64,000 bases of DNA from Escherichia phage Killian. A program made the translations under genes and the position numbers. The stretch lies in sequence record OQ446694.1, one strand, 5' to 3'. The notes under the pieces were generated by a model. That model did no database searches and was not told the origin of the DNA. It saw only the letters and a list, made by a program, of their open reading frames with translations. Shown piece by piece: positions 3 to 62,174 of the stretch (the stretch's first letter is position 1; each line of letters opens with the position of its first letter).

Positions 3-2966
3 GGGGAAAATCTCCCGAGTAATCAATATAGATGGATTAACTTAGGATATACTGCAAATAACAGCTTCTTTTTTGACGATGCTGACCCATTGACATCATA
101 CATTATTAGAGTAGCTACAGCTGCACAAGATTTTGAGCAGTCTGATTGGATTTATACCGAAGAGTTTGAAACTTTTGCTACAAATGCTTATACATTTCAA
201 AACATGATTGAAATGCAATTAGCTAATAAATTCATTCAGGAAAAATTTACTCTTAATAATTCTGACTATGTTAATTTTAATAATGACACTATAATGGCTG
301 CATTGATGAATGAATCATTCCAATTCAGCCCATCATATGCTGATGTTTCATCAATAAGTAATTTTATTATTGGTGAAAATGAGTATCATGAAATACAAGG
401 TTCTATTCAGCAAGTATGTAAGGATATTAATCGAGTTTATTTGATGGAATCAGAAGGGATTCTATATCTTTTTGAGCGTTATCAACCTGTAGTTAAAGTA
501 TCCAATGATAAAGGTCAAACCTGGAAAGCTGTAAAGCTCTTCAATGACCGTGTAGGATATCCTTTATCTAAGACTGTATATTACCAATCTGCGAGCACAA
601 CATATGTTCTAGGATACGACAAGATTTTCTATGGCCGCAAATCTACTGATGTTAGATGGTCAGCTGATGATGTCAGATTTAGTTCGCAGGACATAACATT
701 CGCTAAACTTGGTGATCAACTTCATTTGGGATTTGATGTTGAAATCTTTGGTACTTATGCTACATTACCTGCAAATGTGTATCGTATAGCTGAAGCTATT
801 ACTTGCACCGATGATTACATTTACGTTGTCGCCAGAGACAAAGTTAGATACATAAAAACGAGCAATGCACCTATAGATTCTGATCCATTATCTCCAACAT
901 ATTCAGAAAGGCTATTTGAACCTGATACAATGACTATAACTGGAAATCCTAAAGCAGTATGCTATAAAATGGATTCTATTGGTGATAAAGTTTTTGCTCT
1001 TATTATCGGTGAAGTTGAAACATTAAATGCTAATCCTAGAACGTCAAAAATAATTGATTCTGCTGATAAAGGAATATATGTTTTAAATCATGACACAAAA
1101 ACGTGGAAAAGAGTTTTTGGCAACACTGAAGAAGAAAGAAGACGTATTCAACCTGGGTATGCGAATATGTCAACTGATGGTAAATTAGTTTCTCTATCTT
1201 CGAGTAATTTTAAATTTTTAAGTGATAATATTGTTAATGACCCTGAAACTGTAGCAAAATATCAGTTAATCGGTGCCGTTAAATATGAATTTCCTCGTGA
1301 ATGGTTAGCTGATAAGCATTATCATATGATGGCATTTATAGCAGATGAAAAGTCTGATTGGGAAACTTTTACGCCTCAGCCGATGAAATACTATGCAGAA
1401 CCATTCTTTAACTGGTCTAAAAAGTCTAATACACGGTGCTGGATAAACAACTCTAATAGGGCTGTGGTAGTTTATGCAGATTTAAAATATACTAAAGTTA
1501 TTGAAAATTTTCCAGAAACATCGCCAGATAGATTAGTTCATGAATACTGGGATGACGGCGATTGCACTATAGTAATGCCAAACGTTAAATTCACGGGATT
1601 TAAAAAATATGCGTCTGGGATGCTTTTTTATAAATCCTCTGGTGAAATAATTTCTTATTATGATTTTAACTATCGAGTGAGAGACACGGTTGAAATAATT
1701 TGGAAGCCAACTGGAATATTTTTAAAAGCATTTTTACAAAACCAAGAGCATGAAACTCCTTGGTCACCAGAAGAAGAGCATGGATTAGCTGACCCTGATT
1801 TAAGACCATTGATTGGCACAATGATGCCTGATTCTTATTTACTACAAGATTCGAATTTTGAGGCATTTTGCGAAGCATATATTCAATATCTTTCTGATGG
1901 ATATGGAACTCAGTATAACAATTTACGAAATTTAATTCGTAACAAATATCCACGAGAAGAGCATGCATGGGAATATTTGTGGTCAGAGATATATAAAAGA
2001 AACATTTATTTAAATGCTGACAAACGTGATGCTGTTGCAAGATTTTTTGAATCACGTAGCTATGATTTTTATTCTACTAAAGGAATTGAAGCATCATATA
2101 AATTTCTTTTTAAAGTTCTTTATAATGAAGAAGTTGAAATTGAAATTGAATCTGGTGCTGGTACTGAATACGATATAATCGTTCAATCTGATTCTTTAAC
2201 TGAAGATTTGGTAGGACAAACGATTTATACAGCTACAGGAAGATGTAATGTTACTTATATAGAAAGAAGTTATTCTAATGGTAAATTGCAATGGACCGTA
2301 ACTATTCATAATCTTTTGGGAAGATTAATTGCTGGTCAAGAAGTTAAAGCAGAAAGACTTCCGAGTTTTGAAGGCGAAATTATTCGTGGTGTTAAAGGAA
2401 AGGATTTGCTTCAAAATAATATAGACTATATTAATAGAAGCCGATCATATTATGTAATGAAAATTAAATCCAATTTACCTTCTTCTCGCTGGAAATCTGA
2501 CGTTATTCGTTTTGTTCATCCAGTAGGATTTGGATTTATAGCAATTACCCTTTTAACGATGTTTATTAATGTTGGTTTAACTCTTAAACACACAGAGACT
2601 ATAATTAATAAATACAAAAACTACAAATGGGATTCTGGATTGCCTACTGAATATGCTGATAGAGTAGCTAAATTAACTCCAACTGGTGAAATTGAACATG
2701 ATTCAGTAACAGGAGAAGCAATTTATGAACCTGGCCCAATGGCTGGTGTAAAATATCCTCTTCCTGATGACTATAATGCTGAAAATAATAATTCAATATT
2801 TCAAGGTCAATTGCCTTCTGAACGACGCAAGTTAATGAGTCCTCTATTTGACGCATCTGGAACAACATTTGCACAGTTTAGGGATTTAGTTAATAAACGT
2901 CTAAAAGATAATATAGGAAATCCAAGAGACCCTGAAAATCCAACACAGGTTAAAATAGATGAATGA
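3..2966 (+). CDS. 7: baseplate wedge protein gp7, 5'-truncated at window edge
   Basis: 958-aa ORF; frame stays open to position 3, so the TTG at 90 in the track is internal; recalled T4 gp7 is ~1032 aa. Confidence 0.9.
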   Translation, partial: GENLPSNQYRWINLGYTANNSFFFDDADPLTSYIIRVATAAQDFEQSDWIYTEEFETFATNAYTFQNMIEMQLANKFIQEKFTLNNSDYVNFNNDTIMAALMNESFQFSPSYADVSSISNFIIGENEYHEIQGSIQQVCKDINRVYLMESEGILYLFERYQPVVKVSNDKGQTWKAVKLFNDRVGYPLSKTVYYQSASTTYVLGYDKIFYGRKSTDVRWSADDVRFSSQDITFAKLGDQLHLGFDVEIFGTYATLPANVYRIAEAITCTDDYIYVVARDKVRYIKTSNAPIDSDPLSPTYSERLFEPDTMTITGNPKAVCYKMDSIGDKVFALIIGEVETLNANPRTSKIIDSADKGIYVLNHDTKTWKRVFGNTEEERRRIQPGYANMSTDGKLVSLSSSNFKFLSDNIVNDPETVAKYQLIGAVKYEFPREWLADKHYHMMAFIADEKSDWETFTPQPMKYYAEPFFNWSKKSNTRCWINNSNRAVVVYADLKYTKVIENFPETSPDRLVHEYWDDGDCTIVMPNVKFTGFKKYASGMLFYKSSGEIISYYDFNYRVRDTVEIIWKPTGIFLKAFLQNQEHETPWSPEEEHGLADPDLRPLIGTMMPDSYLLQDSNFEAFCEAYIQYLSDGYGTQYNNLRNLIRNKYPREEHAWEYLWSEIYKRNIYLNADKRDAVARFFESRSYDFYSTKGIEASYKFLFKVLYNEEVEIEIESGAGTEYDIIVQSDSLTEDLVGQTIYTATGRCNVTYIERSYSNGKLQWTVTIHNLLGRLIAGQEVKAERLPSFEGEIIRGVKGKDLLQNNIDYINRSRSYYVMKIKSNLPSSRWKSDVIRFVHPVGFGFIAITLLTMFINVGLTLKHTETIINKYKNYKWDSGLPTEYADRVAKLTPTGEIEHDSVTGEAIYEPGPMAGVKYPLPDDYNAENNNSIFQGQLPSERRKLMSPLFDASGTTFAQFRDLVNKRLKDNIGNPRDPENPTQVKIDE

Positions 2967-3963
2967 TTCAAGTGTTATCTATCGTGCGATAGTTACTTCA
3001 AAATTTAGAACAGAAAAAATGTTGAATTTTTATAATTCAATTGGGAGTGGTCCGGATAAAAACACTATCTTTATCACATTTGGAAGATCAGAACCGTGGT
3101 CATCAAATGAAAATGAGGTGGGCTTTGCTCCACCTTATCCAACTGATTCTGTATTGGGTGTAACTGACATGTGGACTCATATGATGGGAACCGTAAAGGT
3201 TCTTCCATCTATGCTTGATGCGGTTATTCCTCGTAGAGATTGGGGAGATACTAGATATCCGGATCCATACACATTTAGAATTAACGATATTGTAGTATGT
3301 AACTCAGCTCCTTACAATGCTACTGAATCAGGCGCAGGCTGGCTAGTATATCGTTGTTTAGATGTTCCTGACACAGGAACATGCTCAATAACATCTTTGA
3401 CTGACAAGGATGAATGTATTAAGTTAGGTGGAAAATGGACTCCTTCTGTTAGGTCAATGACTCCTCCTGAAGGTCGAGGAGACGCGGAAGGAACAATCGA
3501 ACCTGGAGACGGATATGTTTGGGAATATCTTTTTGAGATTCCGCCTGATGTATCTATAAATAGATGCACAAATGAATATATCGTAGTTCCTTGGCCTGAG
3601 GAATTAAAAGAAGACCCTGCTAGATGGGGGTATGAAGATAATCTCACTTGGCAACAAGATGATTTTGGATTAATTTATCGCGTTAAGGCAAATACTATCC
3701 GTTTTAAAGCATATTTAGATTCAGTTTACTTTCCTGATGCTGCATTACCGGGAAATAAAGGATTTAGACAAATATCAATAATCACCAATCCTCTTGAAGC
3801 TAAAGTTCATCCAAATGACCCAAACGTTAAAGCTGAAAAGGATTATTATGATCCGGAAGATTTAATGAGGCATTCGGGCGAAATGATTTATATGGAAAAT
3901 AGGCCACCTATTATCATGGCAATGGATCAAACAGAAGAAATCAATATTCTGTTTACATTTTAA
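2959..3963 (+). CDS. 8: baseplate wedge protein gp8
   Basis: 334 aa, matches recalled T4 gp8 length and sequence; overlaps gene 7 stop. Confidence 0.93.
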   Translation: MNDSSVIYRAIVTSKFRTEKMLNFYNSIGSGPDKNTIFITFGRSEPWSSNENEVGFAPPYPTDSVLGVTDMWTHMMGTVKVLPSMLDAVIPRRDWGDTRYPDPYTFRINDIVVCNSAPYNATESGAGWLVYRCLDVPDTGTCSITSLTDKDECIKLGGKWTPSVRSMTPPEGRGDAEGTIEPGDGYVWEYLFEIPPDVSINRCTNEYIVVPWPEELKEDPARWGYEDNLTWQQDDFGLIYRVKANTIRFKAYLDSVYFPDAALPGNKGFRQISIITNPLEAKVHPNDPNVKAEKDYYDPEDLMRHSGEMIYMENRPPIIMAMDQTEEINILFTF

Positions 3964-28432: not shown

Positions 28433-29944
28433 ATGACTGACATTAAAGTACATTTTTATGATTTTAGTCACGTGAGAATTGATTGCGAAGAAAGTACATT
28501 TCATGAACTCCGTGATTTCTTTAGCTTTGAAGCTGATGGGTATCGTTTTAATCCGAAATACAAATATGGCCACTGGGATGGACGAATTCGTCTTTTAGAT
28601 TATAATCGCCTTCTTCCATTCGGTTTAGTCGGGCAAATTAAAAAGTTCTGTGATAACTTTGGCTATAAAGCCTGGATTGACCCGCAAATTAACGAAAAAG
28701 AAGAATTATCAAGAAAAGATTTTGATGAATGGCTTTCTAAATTAGAAATCTATTCAGGAAATAAAAGAATTGAACCGCATTGGTATCAAAAAGATGCAGT
28801 GTTCGAAGGATTAGTTAATCGTCGTAGAATTCTTAATCTTCCAACATCCGCAGGTAAATCTTTAATTCAAGCTTTGCTCGCTCGGTATTATTTGGAAAAT
28901 TATGAAGGCAAAATTCTTATCATTGTTCCAACAACTGCTCTGACAACTCAGATGGCTGATGACTTTGTTGACTATCGTTTATTCAGTCATGCAATGATAA
29001 AGAAAATCGGCGGTGGAGCATCAAAAGATGATAAATATAAAAATGATGCACCGGTCGTTGTTGGTACATGGCAAACTGTAGTAAAACAACCAAAAGAATG
29101 GTTCTCACAGTTTGGAATGATGATGAATGATGAATGTCATCTTGCTACAGGAAAAAGTATTTCATCTATCATATCAGGTTTAAATAACTGTATGTTTAAA
29201 TTTGGTTTGTCTGGTTCATTGCGCGATGGCAAAGCTAATATCATGCAGTATGTTGGAATGTTCGGTGAAATATTTAAGCCAGTAACGACCTCTAAATTAA
29301 TGGAAGATGGACAAGTAACTGAGTTAAAAATTAATAGTATTTTTCTTCGCTATCCCGATGAGTTCACTACTAAATTAAAGGGAAAAACTTACCAAGAAGA
29401 AATAAAAATTATTACTGGGCTCAGTAAAAGAAATAAATGGATCGCTAAATTAGCTATTAAGCTTGCGCAAAAAGATGAAAATGCTTTTGTCATGTTTAAA
29501 CACGTATCGCACGGTAAAGCTATTTTCGATTTAATTAAAAATGAATACGATAAAGTTTATTACGTATCAGGGGAAGTTGATACCGAAACCCGCAATATAA
29601 TGAAAACCTTAGCTGAAAACGGTAAAGGAATAATTATAGTAGCTAGTTATGGTGTATTTTCTACCGGTATTTCAGTTAAAAATCTGCATCACGTTGTTTT
29701 AGCACACGGTGTTAAATCTAAAATTATTGTATTGCAAACAATAGGTCGCGTATTACGTAAGCATGGTTCTAAAACAATCGCAACAGTCTGGGACCTCATA
29801 GATGACGCGGGCGTAGTTTCTAAATCAAAAACATCTTCTAAAAAATACTCGCATTTAAACTATCTTTTAAAACATGGACTTGATCGTATTCAGCGTTATG
29901 CTGATGAGAAGTTTAATTATGTGATGAAAGAGGTTAAACTTTGA
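28433..29944 (+). CDS. uvsW: UvsW DNA/RNA helicase (SF2)
   Basis: 503 aa; Walker A PTSAGKS and DECH box. Confidence 0.95.
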   Translation: MTDIKVHFYDFSHVRIDCEESTFHELRDFFSFEADGYRFNPKYKYGHWDGRIRLLDYNRLLPFGLVGQIKKFCDNFGYKAWIDPQINEKEELSRKDFDEWLSKLEIYSGNKRIEPHWYQKDAVFEGLVNRRRILNLPTSAGKSLIQALLARYYLENYEGKILIIVPTTALTTQMADDFVDYRLFSHAMIKKIGGGASKDDKYKNDAPVVVGTWQTVVKQPKEWFSQFGMMMNDECHLATGKSISSIISGLNNCMFKFGLSGSLRDGKANIMQYVGMFGEIFKPVTTSKLMEDGQVTELKINSIFLRYPDEFTTKLKGKTYQEEIKIITGLSKRNKWIAKLAIKLAQKDENAFVMFKHVSHGKAIFDLIKNEYDKVYYVSGEVDTETRNIMKTLAENGKGIIIVASYGVFSTGISVKNLHHVVLAHGVKSKIIVLQTIGRVLRKHGSKTIATVWDLIDDAGVVSKSKTSSKKYSHLNYLLKHGLDRIQRYADEKFNYVMKEVKL

Positions 29945-30633
29945 ATTATAAATTAATATATGATAATTTAATTAATAGAGCCCAGAATCGGGCTCGCCTT
30001 AATGGATACACTGAAACTCATCATATAATTCCTAGATGTATGGGTGGTACAGATGATAAGTGTAATTTGGTAGAACTAACAGCTGAAGAGCATTTTATAG
30101 CTCATAAACTTTTAGCTAAAATTCATCCAAACCATTACGGTATAATTAAAGCCGTTATATGTATGGGAATGAATTCAAATACTCATGAAAGACACGTTAA
30201 TAAATCTTACGCCTGGGAACGTCGTAAAATGGCAAAACTTCAATCAGGTGAAGGTAATCCATTTTACGGAAAACACCATACGGAAGAACATAAACAATAT
30301 ATGTCAAAACTCATGAAAAATCGTCCAATTACGTGGGGAAGTAAAATTAGTAAAACTAAAAGAATGAACCCAACAAAATGGACTGAAGAAGCTAAAAGAT
30401 TGCATTCTATCAATCAATCAGGTAAAAATAATGGCATGTATGGAAGGAAACATTCCGCTAAATCTATTCAGAAAATTAAAGATAACATGCCAGATAATTC
30501 AGGAGCTAATAACCCAGCTGCTAAACCTATAGAAGTAAATGGTGTTAAGTATAAATGCATGAAAGATGCTTCTAAAGCTACTGGATTATCAATGTACAAA
30601 CTAAGAATACTTAGAAAAACAGTTAATTTATAA
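29941..30633 (+). CDS. free-standing HNH homing endonuclease (NUMOD3 repeats, C-terminal HTH)
   Basis: 230 aa; ETHHIIPRCMGG...NLVELTAEEHFIAH HNH motif; start is TTG overlapping the uvsW stop. Confidence 0.8.
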   Translation: MNYKLIYDNLINRAQNRARLNGYTETHHIIPRCMGGTDDKCNLVELTAEEHFIAHKLLAKIHPNHYGIIKAVICMGMNSNTHERHVNKSYAWERRKMAKLQSGEGNPFYGKHHTEEHKQYMSKLMKNRPITWGSKISKTKRMNPTKWTEEAKRLHSINQSGKNNGMYGRKHSAKSIQKIKDNMPDNSGANNPAAKPIEVNGVKYKCMKDASKATGLSMYKLRILRKTVNL

Positions 30634-30658
30634 GGGCTTCGGCCCTTTGGAGAAAAAG

Positions 30659-55060: not shown

Positions 55061-56648
<1,588 letters not shown>

Positions 56649-56654
56649 AATAAA

Positions 56655-56669
56655 ATGGGCCTTGCGGCC
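56655..56669 (-). other. hairpin between nrdB stop and denA start codon
   Basis: gggcc-gcaa-ggccc located between an AAGGA Shine-Dalgarno-like element and the denA ATG. Confidence 0.55.
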
Positions 56670-56675
56670 CACTCC

Positions 56676-57854
56676 TTAAAAATATTTTTTAAAACTCATC
56701 ATAACTTTATCATCAACATCATTATCAATCTGTGCAACAAGGTAAGATGACAGTTCTACTTCTTGTGGCGCGGATTGAACATTATCAGAATTAAGATATT
56801 CACGAATCCAAGGATATGGATGTTTAACCGGAGCATCGGTAATTGGGCATGGAAGACCGCACTGTTTCATACGAGATACAGTTAAGTAATCAATAAAGCT
56901 CCGCATGCTATTTGTATTTAATCCAGGAACATCACCATCTTTAAATAAATGAACTGCCCAGTCTTTTTCTTGACGGTTAACTTCCATGAAAATATCAACT
57001 GCTTCTTGTTCACACTCTTGAGCAATTTTAACCCATTCATCGCCATCAGTACCGGATTGAAGTTGACGAATAATATATTGGGTGCCTTTAAGGTGAAGCT
57101 GCTCATCACGTGCAATGAACTTCATAATCTTGGCATTACCTTCCATGATTTCCATGTTCTTATGGAAGTTAAAGGTACATGCAAAAGATACATAAAAACG
57201 AATAGCTTCTAAGGCATTAATAACGTGCAAACAGAGGTAAAGAGATTTCATTAGTGCTCGTTTAGCTTCGGCTTCTTGTTTAATAGCTCGATTTAAACGA
57301 AAAACAGCATCAGGAGATTCTTTAGCTAGTTCTGTAAATTCTTTAGCATTTTCCCATTCACGGGTTTTAGTCAGAACATCATCATAATAGCGACCGATAG
57401 ATTCAGCACGTTTCATGATAGCTTCATCTAGTACAATCTCATCAAATACCTTCGATGGATCAGTATAAAGATTTCGCATGATATGAGTATATGAACGACT
57501 GTGAATAGTTTCACTAAAAGTCCATGTAGCAACCCATGTATCAAGACTTGGGTCTGAAATTAATGACATAAGTACAGCAGATGGCGCACGACCCTGAATG
57601 CTATCTAGAAGTGATTGATACTTCAGGTTATTAGTAAAAATATCTTGCTGATACTGAGGAAGCTTGTTAAATTGTGCAGCATCCATCATCAAGTTTACTT
57701 CTTCAGGACGCCAAAAAAATGATAAAGATTTCTCAATAAGTTCTTCAAATACTCTATGCCGTTGAATATCATATCGAGCTAAACCCAATCCAGAACCAAA
57801 AAACATCGGCTCAGTTAAAATATTAACAGGGGATGTATTAAAAACTGTACTCAT
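56676..57854 (-). CDS. nrdB: ribonucleotide reductase small subunit, uninterrupted (no intron)
   Basis: 392-aa continuous ORF. Confidence 0.93.
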   Translation of the reverse strand: MSTVFNTSPVNILTEPMFFGSGLGLARYDIQRHRVFEELIEKSLSFFWRPEEVNLMMDAAQFNKLPQYQQDIFTNNLKYQSLLDSIQGRAPSAVLMSLISDPSLDTWVATWTFSETIHSRSYTHIMRNLYTDPSKVFDEIVLDEAIMKRAESIGRYYDDVLTKTREWENAKEFTELAKESPDAVFRLNRAIKQEAEAKRALMKSLYLCLHVINALEAIRFYVSFACTFNFHKNMEIMEGNAKIMKFIARDEQLHLKGTQYIIRQLQSGTDGDEWVKIAQECEQEAVDIFMEVNRQEKDWAVHLFKDGDVPGLNTNSMRSFIDYLTVSRMKQCGLPCPITDAPVKHPYPWIREYLNSDNVQSAPQEVELSSYLVAQIDNDVDDKVMMSFKKYF

Positions 57855-58492
57855 TTAGAATCCTTAAATTTACATTTATCATAATGCCATCTTAAAGCAT
57901 TGCCTTTATTAACTTTCTTGCCACAATGCGGACAAGGCGGATACTCTGTACCTTGCTTAGTTCTCAAAGAGATCAAATCACGAGTTTCTTTAGTATGAGG
58001 AACATCTCTTGTCGGAGAGATTGTACCATACATCGGATTAAGCACGCCGACTTTAGCAGCAGCTATATTCTTTTTAGCTTCTTCGGTTTTAGGTTTTCTC
58101 ATGCGAGCTAAATGCTCTTTGGTAAATTTCCTTCCTTTAAGAGCTCTACTTATCTTTTCTCTGGTTTCTATAGAAACTTCACGTCCTATAGCAGCTTCAG
58201 ATAAACGTCGTCTACCTAATTCGTATAGTTGAGAAGAAATTTTATATGAGCGATTTTTACCAGTCAAGCACATTAAACCAAAAGCTTTCTTTAATCCTGG
58301 CGTGTCATATATTTTACATAAAAGCCAATGAGCTATAAAATGCTCTCTACCTGTTAATTCAACTAAATTTTCTTTATCATCAGAACCTCCCATACATCTA
58401 GGGATTATATGATGAGTCTCTTTATATCCTAATAAAGGTTCCCGGGTTTTAGCCCGGGAAATTAAACTATTATATACGTTTTGATAATTCAT
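57851..58492 (-). CDS. mobE: HNH homing endonuclease between nrdA and nrdB (mobE-like)
   Basis: 213 aa; ETHHIIPRCMGG HNH motif, NUMOD3-like repeats, C-terminal CPHCGKK...C zinc finger; ATG overlaps nrdA TAA. Confidence 0.7.
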   Translation of the reverse strand: MNYQNVYNSLISRAKTREPLLGYKETHHIIPRCMGGSDDKENLVELTGREHFIAHWLLCKIYDTPGLKKAFGLMCLTGKNRSYKISSQLYELGRRRLSEAAIGREVSIETREKISRALKGRKFTKEHLARMRKPKTEEAKKNIAAAKVGVLNPMYGTISPTRDVPHTKETRDLISLRTKQGTEYPPCPHCGKKVNKGNALRWHYDKCKFKDSK

Positions 58493-60756
58493 TACAATTT
58501 ACACGCTGCGCAATCTTCAGCTTTTGGAGTTTCTATTTCATAATCATCAGTACCAGAACCATCGCGGGTATTATGATAATAGAAATTTTTTCCGCCAAAA
58601 TACCAAAAGTACAAAAGGTCATCAATCATTACAGACATTGGAACCTTTCCTTTTGGAAAAATCTGCGGGTCATAATATGTATTCGCTGAAGCTGATTGAC
58701 ATACCCATTTCAGCATAATAGCTACCTGCGTAAGATAAGGTTTATTACCTTTCTTAGCTAATTTCCACGTATAATCATAGAGGTCTATGTTATGTTCAAT
58801 ATTGGGCACGACTTGATTAAAGGAACCCTCTTTTGATTCTTTAACCGAGACTGGTCCACGTGGAGGCTCGATACCGTTTGTGCTGTTAGAAACTTGGGAA
58901 GATGACTCACATGGCATAAGTGCTGATAATGTGCTATTACGGATGCCAAAGAGCTTAAGGTCTTCCCGCAGCGACGACCAGTCACAAACGTATTTTGGAG
59001 CTGCGATTTGGTCAATCTTTTTATTGTACCAGTCGATAGGTAATTCGCCTCGAGACCAACGAGTGTCTGAATAATATTCGCAAGGTCCTTTTTCTTTGGC
59101 GAGCTTAATGGATGCTTTAATGAGTCCATACTGCAATCTCTCAAATAGTTCATGTGTTAAATCGTTAGCATCTTCATAAGAAGCAAAGTTACTTGCCAGC
59201 CAAGCTGCATAGTTAGTAACACCTACGCCAAGGTTTCGACGCTTTTTAGCTTTTTCTGCTTCAGGAACTGGATATCCTTGGTAATCCAACAGATTATCAA
59301 GAGCGCGAACTTGAACTTCTGCCAATTCATTAATTTTATCTTGGTCTTGCCAATCGAAGTTATCCAACACAAATGCAGATAACGTGCACAATCCAATTTC
59401 AGCATCAGGACTATTCACATCATTTGTTGGAATAGCAATTTCACAACACAAGTTACTCTGACGAATAGGTGCCTTTTCACGAATAAACGGAGTATAGTTA
59501 TTCGTATTATCAATGAACTGTACATAAATCCTTGCTGTTCCTGATCGTTCAGTCATGAGCAATTCAAATAGTTCACGGGCTTTAATACGCTTTTTACGAA
59601 TATTAGGATCTTTTTCTGCTGCTTCGTATAATTCACGGAAACGGTCTTGGTCTTTAAAATAAGAATAATAAAGTTCGCCACCCATTTCATGCGGACTAAA
59701 CAAAGTAATGTAATCGTTCTTTCCGAATCGTTCCATCATTAGGTCATTCAGCTGAACACCATAATCCATATGACGGATACGGTTTTCTTCTACGCCTTTG
59801 TTATTTTTCAAAACGAGAAGATTTTCAACTTCCAAATGCCAAATAGGATAATAAGCAGTAGCAGCGCCGCCACGAATTCCGCCCTGTGAACATGATTTAA
59901 CAGCAGTCTGAAAATGTTTCCAAAAAGGAATAACACCAGTATGACGCACTTCACCTGTGCCAATCTTAGAACCTTCGGCACGAATCATACCAACGTTAAT
60001 ACCAGTTCCAGCGCGTTTGGAGATATATTCAACAATTGAAGCAGAAGCTTTGTTAATAGACTTCAGCGAATCACCTGCTTCAATAACAACGCATGAACTA
60101 AACTGCCGAGTTGGAGTACGGCAACCAGCCATAATAGGAGTTGGTAATGAAATCTGTCGAGTAGATACTGCTTCATAAAAACGAATAACATGTTTTAATC
60201 TATCAACAGGTTCATCTTGATGCAGTGCCATTCCAATAGTCATAAATGCAAACTGCGGAGTTTCATAAATTTGACCAGTGGTTTTATCTTTAACTAGATA
60301 TTTTTCTTTTAATTGCATTGCCCCGGAATAAGTAAATTCCATATCCCGCTCATGCTTAATTTTTGATTCTAAAAATGTAATTTCTTCGGCAGAATATTTT
60401 GACAACAATTCAGGGTCGTATTTACCTTCATTTACACAGTAAGAAATATGGTCAATAAATGAACGGGGCTCATACTGCCCGTAAACATGCTTACGAAGAG
60501 CGAACATTAAACAGCGTGCAGCTACATATTGATAATCAGGCTCTTCAACTGAAATAGAATTCGCGGCAGCCTTAATTACAATAGTTTGAATGTCATCAGT
60601 GGTCATTCCATCACGGAGATATGATTTAATATTTTCATATAATTCATAAGGATCTACAGATGTTCCTTCAGCTGCCCAAGATAAAACTTTAATAATTTTT
60701 TGCGGGTCAAAGCTCTGAGAAACACCACTACTTTTGATAACATTAATTAATTGCAT
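58492..60756 (-). CDS. nrdA: ribonucleotide reductase large subunit
   Basis: 754 aa; N-terminal ATP-cone and class I RNR catalytic region. Confidence 0.95.
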   Translation of the reverse strand: MQLINVIKSSGVSQSFDPQKIIKVLSWAAEGTSVDPYELYENIKSYLRDGMTTDDIQTIVIKAAANSISVEEPDYQYVAARCLMFALRKHVYGQYEPRSFIDHISYCVNEGKYDPELLSKYSAEEITFLESKIKHERDMEFTYSGAMQLKEKYLVKDKTTGQIYETPQFAFMTIGMALHQDEPVDRLKHVIRFYEAVSTRQISLPTPIMAGCRTPTRQFSSCVVIEAGDSLKSINKASASIVEYISKRAGTGINVGMIRAEGSKIGTGEVRHTGVIPFWKHFQTAVKSCSQGGIRGGAATAYYPIWHLEVENLLVLKNNKGVEENRIRHMDYGVQLNDLMMERFGKNDYITLFSPHEMGGELYYSYFKDQDRFRELYEAAEKDPNIRKKRIKARELFELLMTERSGTARIYVQFIDNTNNYTPFIREKAPIRQSNLCCEIAIPTNDVNSPDAEIGLCTLSAFVLDNFDWQDQDKINELAEVQVRALDNLLDYQGYPVPEAEKAKKRRNLGVGVTNYAAWLASNFASYEDANDLTHELFERLQYGLIKASIKLAKEKGPCEYYSDTRWSRGELPIDWYNKKIDQIAAPKYVCDWSSLREDLKLFGIRNSTLSALMPCESSSQVSNSTNGIEPPRGPVSVKESKEGSFNQVVPNIEHNIDLYDYTWKLAKKGNKPYLTQVAIMLKWVCQSASANTYYDPQIFPKGKVPMSVMIDDLLYFWYFGGKNFYYHNTRDGSGTDDYEIETPKAEDCAACKL

Positions 60757-61313: not shown

Positions 61314-62174
61314 TTACACCGCCATTTTTCCTTTAATAGGAGGGTGTGATTCGTAACCTTTAAGAACGAAATCTTTAGGCCTGAGTTTAAGAACATATTC
61401 CAATTGTTCTTTAGTAGAAAGATAGCGGAATTTATAAGGCAATCCGCCTATTACCAGTTCACAAAGCTCTTTAGGTTCACGACGTAAAATTTCTTTACAT
61501 TGTTCTACGTGATTCATATAGATATGAGTATTACCACCAGAAAATATCAAATCTCCTGGAATAAGATTACACATCTTAGCTACAATATGAACTAACGCAG
61601 CATATGATGCAATATTAAATGGAAGACCGAGGAAAACATCTACTGATCGTTGATACCACTGCAAATCCAAATAGCCATTACGCACATTAAACTGATAGAA
61701 CATATGACAAGGCGGTAATGCCATATATTTAAGTTCAGCTGGATTCCATGCTGAAACAATTTGACGTCTATCATTTGGCAGTTTTTTAATACGATTAACA
61801 ACTTCTACAATTTGGTCTACACCGCCAAAATCACGCCATTGTTTTCCATAAATTGGACCAAGTTCACCGCTATGATATCCTAAATCTTTTGCTTGATTTT
61901 CGTAATTTTCGTCCCAGACTGTTTTGCCTTGAATTAATGAATCATGCTGAATTAATCGTAAATCATTGACATTTGTGCTTCCTGATAAAAACCAAAGTAG
62001 CTCAGCAATGCAAGCTTTCCAGGCGAGCTTCTTAGTTGTTACTGCAGGAAAACCTTTACTTAAATCCCAACGTAATTTAGTACCGAACAAAGCAATTGTT
62101 CCTGTGCCTGTTCGGTCATCAGTTTCATAGCCATTTTCAAAAATGTCTTTAATTAAATCTTGGTATTGTTTCAT
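61314..62174 (-). CDS. td: thymidylate synthase, uninterrupted (no group I intron)
   Basis: 286-aa continuous ORF; T4 td intron position maps to 61625/61626 and is unoccupied. Confidence 0.95.
   Translation of the reverse strand: MKQYQDLIKDIFENGYETDDRTGTGTIALFGTKLRWDLSKGFPAVTTKKLAWKACIAELLWFLSGSTNVNDLRLIQHDSLIQGKTVWDENYENQAKDLGYHSGELGPIYGKQWRDFGGVDQIVEVVNRIKKLPNDRRQIVSAWNPAELKYMALPPCHMFYQFNVRNGYLDLQWYQRSVDVFLGLPFNIASYAALVHIVAKMCNLIPGDLIFSGGNTHIYMNHVEQCKEILRREPKELCELVIGGLPYKFRYLSTKEQLEYVLKLRPKDFVLKGYESHPPIKGKMAV

Follow-up and report, generated by a model that had tools for sequence, protein, structure and literature searches.

The closest described counterparts of the gene analyzed here are mobE of phage T4 (Wilson & Edgell 2009, PMC2790892) and its allele in phage LZ7 (DQ178119, protein ABA03236); published work has already described mobE, its allele in LZ7 and the way in which such enzymes are assembled from modules (PMC2790892, PMC2988022). 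In T4, mobE is driven by the nrdA promoters (PMC2790892) and is joined to nrdA through a UAAUGA sequence, which is a translational-coupling arrangement (PMC2988022). A hairpin within the gene has been mapped as a weak terminator, of which LZ7 and RB15 carry a variant with a shorter stem and a longer loop (PMC2790892). What has been observed of T4 MobE is a mobE-dependent nick in vivo only: in vitro activity was never obtained, and the authors left it possible that the protein acts via another nuclease (PMC2790892). The nick sites lie at nt 122-126 of T2 nrdB. The nrdB of mobE carriers differs from that of mobE-less phages around nt 114-131, with AAA, AAG, CGG or CGA as codon 42, and self-protection has been put forward (PMC2790892).

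Two intron-encoded enzymes resemble MobE in their general plan. I-TevI, from the td intron of T4, is modular like MobE: an extended linker, which includes a minor-groove helix and a zinc finger, connects its catalytic head to a DNA-binding module at the end of the protein. Its catalytic family is GIY-YIG rather than HNH. The I-TevI zinc finger is of the Cys4 type and lies in the linker. The same type and placement are given in PMC2988022. I-HmuI of phage SPO1 (PDB 1U3E), which unlike the free-standing MobE is encoded by an intron, shares with it an HNH head followed by an extended DNA-binding region and the nicking of one strand (PMC2790892 and general knowledge), a likeness of architecture only.

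We analyzed a window of 64,000 nucleotides from Escherichia phage Killian (OQ446694.1), in which an open reading frame lies between nrdA and nrdB, all three on the minus strand:

58492..60756, minus strand: nrdA, 754 aa, upstream neighbor of mobE (ORF list and annotations of matching records)
58489..58494, minus strand: TAATGA, the junction of the nrdA stop and the mobE start (sequence)
57851..58492, minus strand: coding sequence assigned here to mobE, LZ7-type allele, 213 aa, ATG start (ORF list)
56676..57854, minus strand: nrdB, 392 aa, downstream neighbor of mobE, intronless (uninterrupted ORF)

The original prediction described a 213-aa frame that fills the gap and overlaps both neighbors; the frame is intact, and both overlaps can be read directly from the sequence. 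At the upstream junction, AAATTGTAATGAATTAT, the nrdA TAA (58494-58492) and the mobE ATG (58492-58490) have one base in common, and within TAATGA a second in-frame nrdA stop comes after the TAA. At the downstream junction, TCTAAATGAGT, the mobE TGA (57853-57851) overlaps the nrdB ATG (57854-57852) as ATGA. The locus and both overlaps are the same in T4. Unlike T4, the phage analyzed here has no nrdB intron or I-TevIII that could be carried along with mobE; in HY03 and SHFML-26, this mobE allele is accompanied by an nrdB intron. We also considered a 144-aa GIY-YIG frame 3' of nrdB (56238-56672), suspected of being a seg-type homing endonuclease, which PHROG 1111 and the annotations of matching records identify as denA (endonuclease II).

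By tblastn, the encoded protein is 99.1% identical to LZ7 mobE, whose GenBank label reads 'mobE putative homing endonuclease', and 68.5% identical to T4 MobE, in both cases over the full length. It also matches PHROG 655 'homing endonuclease' (E = 3e-65), and 1,122 phage records match it in tblastn. With LZ7 the gene shares position, overlaps, hairpin variant and nrdB target-region sequence; five synonymous and two non-synonymous changes, corresponding to two protein differences, separate the two genes, and nothing else is of note. The DNA alignment with T4 mobE is nearly identical over the first approximately 230 nt and the last approximately 250 nt, the final 85 nt or so up to the nrdB start being fully so, whereas approximately 270 nt in the middle are strongly diverged. 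At the protein level the HNH head and the C-terminal 85 residues are nearly identical to those of T4. We therefore identify the frame, with a probability of roughly 0.88, as mobE, which encodes a free-standing homing endonuclease of the HNH family and lies between nrdA and nrdB of Tequatrovirus (T4-like) phages, in the allele first sequenced from LZ7. The placement of an HNH endonuclease at the position of T4 mobE, proposed from the sequence, thus turns out to reflect orthology. Several database records carry this frame as 'hypothetical protein'.

The protein can be divided into three parts:

58328..58423, minus strand: HNH catalytic motif, residues 24-55, KETHHIIPRCMGGSDDKENLVELTGREHFIAH (Pfam PF01844 and alignment)
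57953..58192, minus strand: linker of NUMOD3-type repeats, residues ~101-180 (Pfam NUMOD3 and alignments)
57872..57934, minus strand: CCHC zinc-finger-like motif, residues 187-207 (motif position and alignment)

The head scores above the cut-off of the Pfam HNH model (PF01844; 23.1 bits, cut-off 21.4 bits). As expected if the HNH histidines and asparagine are conserved, H27, H28, N42, H51 and H55 are invariant in an alignment of nine members with homologues from six phage genera. When the profile of this alignment was searched against the PDB, it returned the HNH domains of 6ME0 (E = 4.9e-5) and 6GHC (E = 0.003). All PDB matches of the protein or of the family profile were generic HNH domains (group II intron maturase, McrA-like and Cas8-HNH), and no I-HmuI chain was found among the matches at E <= 1 with either query. 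The comparison with I-HmuI that had been suggested is therefore not backed by sequence similarity in these searches. The same five residues bear on the idea that MobE is not itself a nuclease and is instead a DNA-binding cofactor that steers another phage nuclease to nrdB, a formal possibility raised for T4 because no in vitro activity was obtained (PMC2790892). Their invariance in distant homologues from six genera is what would be expected of a catalytic site, and deletion of the HNH motif abolished nicking in T4 (PMC2790892). We consider such a cofactor role very improbable.

The linker passes the threshold of the Pfam NUMOD3 model (PF07460) with 35.5 bits over two stretches (cut-off 20.4 bits). 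Protein and DNA alignments both show that it has one repeat fewer than that of T4 MobE (19 aa, 57 nt). The C-terminal motif, CPHCGKKVNKGNALRWHYDKC, reads C-x2-C-x12-H-x3-C and is made up of cysteines 187, 190 and 207 together with the conserved histidine 203. With three cysteines and one histidine it is of the CCHC type, and not the C4 zinc finger that had been anticipated. The pattern CPHCG...RWH..(N/K)C is kept in eight of the nine family members, from six phage genera, and is absent from the copy linked to uvsW described below. Pfam zinc-finger models match the protein only below threshold (E ~0.2). A single-sequence AlphaFold2 model had a mean pLDDT of 42.4 and a pTM of 0.26, too low for fold comparison.

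A second gene of this kind is found elsewhere in the window:

29941..30633, plus strand: paralogous gene for a free-standing HNH endonuclease, inserted where uvsW ends (3' side), with a TTG start, NUMOD3 repeats and an I-TevI-like HTH tail

When both proteins were compared with the whole window by tblastn, just these two copies were found. On formal alignment they are clearly paralogous, as had been claimed: in BLASTP they are 38% identical over 183 aa (E = 2e-32), and they agree at 42 of the first 60 residues (70%). The resemblance had been placed in the N-terminal 60 aa or so, where it indeed exists, but it is not confined there and runs through the NUMOD3 linker to residue ~170-180. Likewise, the NUMOD3-like repeats noticed in mobE are present, but they do not set it apart from the uvsW-linked protein, which scores 51 bits with the same model (cut-off 20.4 bits); since they occur in both, they are no distinguishing feature. 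The similarity between the two proteins also disposes of the notion that the mobE frame is a chance opening in the spacer and that its likeness to the other frame is coincidental. Nothing more than the AT-rich composition of the genome speaks for this notion, and the BLASTP E value, the 1,122 matching records, the Pfam and PHROG matches and the purifying selection described below refute it, so that it can practically be dismissed.

The two proteins differ in their tails. The HTH that the original prediction had assigned to the uvsW-linked copy receives weak support, from a match to the DNA-binding domain of I-TevI (PDB 1I3J, E = 0.0058) and from matches to PF20987 (E = 0.03) and TIGR01453 (E = 5e-7) that are each below the cut-off of the model. 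The gene further differs from mobE in its TTG start and its insertion site. In both genes the start overlaps the upstream stop, a hairpin lies at the same codons and the distribution is patchy. The uvsW-linked gene corresponds to a 689-nt presence/absence polymorphism, found in 48 of 501 matching records, among them HY03, EC121, W143 and others, and absent from T4 and T2. It presumably has a different target, with the same head and linker joined to another terminal DNA-binding module. A third combination occurs in phage U115, where a 243-aa endonuclease occupies the same nrdA-nrdB site as mobE. Its HNH head is 59% identical to that of MobE over 100 aa, and its C-terminal two-thirds are unrelated and have no NUMOD3 or CCHC tail. 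Sandegren et al. 2005 are reportedly the source both of Hef and of the LZ7 sequence, and we take this enzyme to be probably of their Hef type. At the MobE site, U115 nrdB has the T2-type (mobE-less) sequence, so that a target other than that of MobE is implied for the U115 endonuclease. The proposal that a single nuclease head is combined with various DNA-binding tails is thus well founded at these loci, given heads that are 70% identical, a CCHC motif in one copy, an I-TevI-like HTH in the other and U115 as a further example. Shuffling of DNA-binding tails is established as a modular mode of homing-endonuclease evolution.

Several expression signals lie within mobE:

58429..58460, minus strand: terminator-like hairpin and T-rich tract in the 5' coding region of mobE (terminator scan and RNA fold)
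58020..58044, minus strand: candidate MotA-dependent (T4 middle) nrdB promoter, TGCTTAA-N12-TACAAT (consensus match)
57851..57865, minus strand: nrdB ribosome-binding site AAGGA (57865-57861) and ATGA overlap (sequence; identical in T4)

The hairpin lies approximately 30 nt into the coding region, as against approximately 27 nt in the general description of mobE, and is formed by TTCCCGGG-CTAAAA-CCCGGGAA (stem-loop at 58460-58439), followed by the T-rich tract CCTTTATT; its predicted fold energy is -16.5 kcal/mol (z = -2.3). It aligns with the internal 5' terminator hairpin of T4, TTCCCGAGC-TCAG-GCTCGGGAA. Both arms have changed and the pairing of the stem is kept, with 8 bp and a 6-nt loop here versus 9 bp and 4 nt in T4. 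A pattern search for MotA-type promoters returned 6 matches in the window versus 2.75 expected; the candidate at 58044-58020 has the same sequence in T4. The MotA-box-like AATGCTTTA at 57901-57893, also identical in T4, was examined as an nrdB promoter and rejected: it has no TAnnnT at the canonical 11-13 bp spacing, and the site at 58044-58020 is the better candidate. A sigma-70 scan of the region gave 9 matches versus 3.7 expected and is uninformative for T4 middle and late promoters.

We looked at the nrdA-nrdB junction in 60 records, taken as a spread sample from 519. The span is approximately 550 nt, that is, with no insert, in most of them; the other spans are approximately 1,135 nt, corresponding to the mobE allele found here, and approximately 1,230 nt, corresponding to another endonuclease. 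In this survey, the query matched records that carry T4-type mobE over its nrdA half only. When the tblastn matches are divided by protein identity, 38 records have at least 90% and hence the allele found here, and 68 fall between 60% and 80%, the band that holds T4 mobE. The presence of mobE among close relatives is sporadic. All nine LZ7-type alleles that we examined keep the full 213-aa frame; this includes VEc20, whose annotation suggested a truncated copy and whose frame we found to be intact. Across the nine alleles, dN/dS of mobE is 0.04-0.23, compared with 0.03-0.18 for the adjacent nrdB. The gene is intact and under purifying selection.

These data can be set against the reading of mobE as a domesticated or decaying remnant, a dead nuclease kept for the nrdB promoter or ribosome-binding site and for a terminator keeping the expression of nrdA and nrdB in balance. 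The ribosome-binding site and a promoter-like site of nrdB do sit inside the frame, an embedded promoter has been argued to select against deletion of mobE (PMC2790892), and defunct endonucleases do occur at the nrdA/nrdB locus, T4 I-TevIII being an example. However, a remnant fits poorly with nine full-length frames out of nine and a whole-gene dN/dS near that of nrdB, with catalytic H/N/H residues and a CCHC motif that are intact, and with relatives that mostly lack mobE and yet have nrdB signals of their own. We regard it as improbable that mobE is such a remnant, and we retain the identification of the gene as one for a homing endonuclease.

The part of nrdB in which T4 MobE nicks T2 DNA is also found in the window:

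57724..57741, minus strand: nrdB nt 114-131, region of T4 MobE nicking in T2 nrdB (sequence and alignment)

Codons 41-45 read GAG AAA TCT TTA TCA here, with AAA as codon 42. In all nine phages with LZ7-type mobE, nrdB encodes EELIEKSLS, and the haplotype GAGAAATCTTTATCA is common to the nine, with A/G variation at two positions. It differs from that of the mobE-less T2, RB27, Shfl2 and teqdroes, whose nrdB encodes EDLTEKQLS; in T4 the corresponding residues are EELIERQIS. Linkage of LZ7-type mobE to one particular form of nrdB, in the region nicked by T4 MobE, is therefore complete. It could stem solely from co-conversion (hitch-hiking) and not from self-protection.

By analogy with T4 (PMC2790892), mobE would have no promoter of its own and would be read from nrdA transcripts, with the internal terminator attenuating its transcription and with low-level translation arising through coupling to nrdA termination. 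In a mixed infection, MobE would nick (or cut) the non-coding strand near codon 42 of nrdB in mobE-less phages, and repair on the mobE-carrying template would bring mobE, along with adjoining nrdA/nrdB sequence, into the recipient genome. The nrdB of the carrier would escape via substitutions in nt 114-131. The details may differ from those of T4. In its middle third the gene differs strongly from that of T4 and is one NUMOD3 repeat shorter, so nick position and specificity could both differ, and the DNA-binding tail is expected to be spaced differently from the catalytic head. Since each allele also has its own linked nrdB haplotype (K-S-L for the LZ7 type found here, R-Q-I for the T4 type), the two may nick differently and possibly attack the carriers of each other. 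A functional non-equivalence of this kind, with different nick positions or sequences, mutual attack on carriers and an allelic arms race at one locus, is a rather unlikely extension.

The correct annotation of this gene is mobE (LZ7-type), a free-standing HNH homing endonuclease, and it has little importance beyond annotation. The locus shows what is known of selfish endonuclease genes: they lodge within signals through which essential genes are expressed, move together with target-site variants that protect against cutting, and diversify by joining one head to various DNA-binding modules.

The 213-aa ORF between nrdA and nrdB is an already described gene, mobE; a near-identical allele is in the databases and has been discussed in print. 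The minus strand has a T4-like gene order (nrdA, the 213-aa ORF, nrdB, denA, rnlA; window ORF list), and the ORF fills the nrdA-nrdB gap and overlaps both neighbors, as originally noted.

Genes at the mobE locus
58492-60756, minus strand: nrdA, 754 aa
57851-58492, minus strand: mobE ORF, 213 aa
56676-57854, minus strand: nrdB, 392 aa, uninterrupted

At the nrdA/mobE junction (TTGTAATGAATT), one base is common to the nrdA TAA and the mobE ATG, and a second in-frame nrdA stop directly follows this overlap. At the mobE/nrdB junction (TCTAAATGAGT), the mobE TGA overlaps the nrdB ATG. Like nrdB, td (286 aa, 61314-62174, minus strand) is uninterrupted. The GIY-YIG ORF 3' of nrdB (56238-56672, minus strand) resembled a seg-type homing endonuclease at first glance and is denA (endonuclease II). 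Its listed GTG start is probably eight codons too early; from the ATG it has 136 aa, the same size as T2 denA.

We compared the mobE protein with 50,697 phage records by tblastn. In phage LZ7 (DQ178119, an nrdA-mobE-nrdB fragment), the protein annotated 'mobE: putative homing endonuclease' is 99.1% identical. The T4 gene in the same position is 68.5% identical, and in Krischvirus JSE a mobE-like gene with 51% identity occupies the nrdA-nrdB interval (2149-3315 of the JSE segment). Overall, 38 records carry the window allele at 90% protein identity or more, and 68 are 60-80% identical, the range into which T4 mobE falls. The protein also matches PHROG 655 'homing endonuclease' (3e-65), Pfam HNH (23.1 bits, cut-off 21.4) and Pfam NUMOD3 (35.5 bits, cut-off 20.4). 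In an alignment of nine family members from six phage genera, the invariant positions include M1, N2 and P31 as well as the HNH His and Asn residues (H27, H28, N42, H51, H55), and the alignment profile matches solved HNH structures (group II intron maturase, E = 4.9e-5; McrA-like enzyme, E = 0.003). Orthology to LZ7 and T4 mobE and the domain matches support the original prediction of an HNH endonuclease at the T4 mobE position, which was correct and, in its interpretation, essentially right. Some public annotations of this region are in error: the T2 record AP018813 (5785-9279) calls nrdB 'thymidylate synthase' and nrdA 'single stranded DNA-binding protein', and HY03 (KR269718) calls nrdA 'putative capsid vertex'. 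The VEc20 record starts mobE at an internal codon, and the full frame there is intact.

A paralogous free-standing HNH endonuclease gene lies directly 3' of uvsW (29941-30633, plus strand), and whole-window tblastn with both proteins detected no further copies. The paralogy is real and far beyond chance (BLASTP, 38% identity over 183 aa, E = 2e-32). Of the N-terminal 60 residues, 42 are identical, and the similarity is not confined to these ~60 aa, as had been proposed, but reaches approximately residue 180 because the HNH head and NUMOD3 repeats are common to both proteins (Pfam). What does differ is the terminal module. Residues 187-207 of mobE (CPHCGKKVNKGNALRWHYDKC) have the pattern C-x2-C-x12-H-x3-C, so the predicted zinc motif is of CCHC type and not C4 as first read; all four ligand positions are kept in the eight motif-bearing members of the nine, one of which has two copies. 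The paralogue ends in a putative HTH-type module: its region 157-216 matches the DNA-binding domain of I-TevI (PDB 1I3J, E = 0.0058), with sub-threshold matches to PF20987 (E = 0.03) and TIGR01453 'group I intron endonuclease' (5e-7). A third tail, unrelated to these two, occurs in phage U115, where the nrdA-nrdB site hosts a 243-aa endonuclease (550-1281 of the U115 segment) with a MobE-like HNH head (59% over 100 aa); we take it to be probably of Hef type. Where MobE nicks, the nrdB of U115 is of the T2 (mobE-less) type. Different terminal modules on a shared head thus support the modular reading, a build that is textbook for such endonucleases (PMC2988022).

As a 689-nt block, the paralogue is cleanly either present or absent; 48 of 501 matching records have it. 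In the region 29925-30650 (plus strand) it is inserted within the last five uvsW codons, and its TTG start overlaps the uvsW stop (TTGA). Its last codons (AAAACAGTTAATTTATAA, KTVNL*) and the next hairpin (GGGCTTCGGCCC) are identical to the T4 and T2 uvsW end, and the window uvsW ends in substitute codons (...MKEVKL*) contributed by the inserted element.

At the DNA level, the window gene is nearly identical to T4 mobE over its first ~230 nt, which encode the HNH head, and over its last ~250 nt, which hold the tail and the nrdB signals. The middle ~270 nt are strongly diverged and lack 57 nt of the T4 gene, corresponding to one NUMOD3 repeat; JSE has the same shorter form. Among nine alleles of the LZ7 type, the variant first sequenced from LZ7, differences cluster in the first 90 nt, where there are two haplotypes, one of them T4-like. 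This indicates, from sequence comparison, recombination between mobE alleles.

T4 mobE has no promoter of its own and is transcribed together with nrdA. Weak intrinsic termination occurs at a hairpin that lies 27 nt into mobE, whose variant in LZ7 and RB15 combines a shortened stem with a larger loop, and the nrdB middle promoter lies in the mobE 3' region (PMC2790892). A terminator scan of the window found the corresponding hairpin at 58460-58429 (minus strand; TTCCCGGG-CTAAAA-CCCGGGAA, then CCTTTATT; -16.5 kcal/mol, z = -2.3). It aligns with that of T4 (TTCCCGAGC-TCAG-GCTCGGGAA), and changes in both arms preserve stem pairing. A candidate MotA-type promoter, by consensus match only (TGCTTAA-N12-TACAAT, 58044-58020, minus strand), and the nrdB ribosome-binding site (AAGGA, 57865-57861, minus strand) are both identical in T4. 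A hairpin ~30 nt into the gene, at the same codons (R-A/G-x-x-R), recurs in four genes: window mobE, T4 mobE, the uvsW-linked paralogue and the Entb_43 homologue.

Hairpins at shared codons in the window
58439-58460, minus strand: mobE stem-loop, same codons as the paralogue hairpin
29970-29995, plus strand: paralogue hairpin, GAGCCC...GGGCTC, without T tract

It is absent at these codons from the five other family members; one branch of the family may have inherited it as an ancestral regulatory feature.

In T4 x T2 crosses, mobE inheritance is super-Mendelian and depends on the HNH motif (Wilson & Edgell, PMC2790892). Nucleotides 114-131 of nrdB differ between mobE-carrying and mobE-less phages, differences that the authors propose protect the carrier; mobE-less phages have AAG at codon 42, and carriers have AAG, AAA, CGG or CGA (PMC2790892). 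In the window, codon 42 is AAA within EELIEKSLS, compared with EELIERQIS in T4 and EDLTEKQLS in the mobE-less T2, RB27, Shfl2 and teqdroes. The K-S-L haplotype is linked to the LZ7-type allele in nine of nine carriers. This mobE allele is found both in phages whose nrdB has an intron (HY03, SHFML-26) and in phages whose nrdB has none (the window, a48, others). JSE NrdB also reads EELIEKSLS, although the genera are distant.

The distribution of mobE is patchy. A chimeric query joining the nrdA 3' end to the nrdB 5' end matched 519 records; in a spread sample of 60, most had no insert (span ~550 nt), and others had LZ7-type mobE (~1135 nt) or the 243-aa endonuclease (~1230 nt). Records with T4-type mobE (such as T4 and RB55) matched the nrdA half of the query only. 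All nine extracted LZ7-type alleles are intact, and pairwise dN/dS is 0.04-0.23 in mobE, similar to the 0.03-0.18 of adjacent nrdB, the pairs not being independent. The MobE protein is clearly maintained by purifying selection.

By analogy with T4, mobE would be co-transcribed with nrdA, translationally coupled to it and attenuated at the internal hairpin. MobE would nick nrdB near codon 42 in mobE-less phages, repair would copy mobE, and the nrdB polymorphisms would be self-protection of the carrier. It is conceivable, though unlikely, that T4-type and LZ7-type mobE have diverged in specificity, each linked to its own immunity haplotype; this is the single reading here with some novelty.
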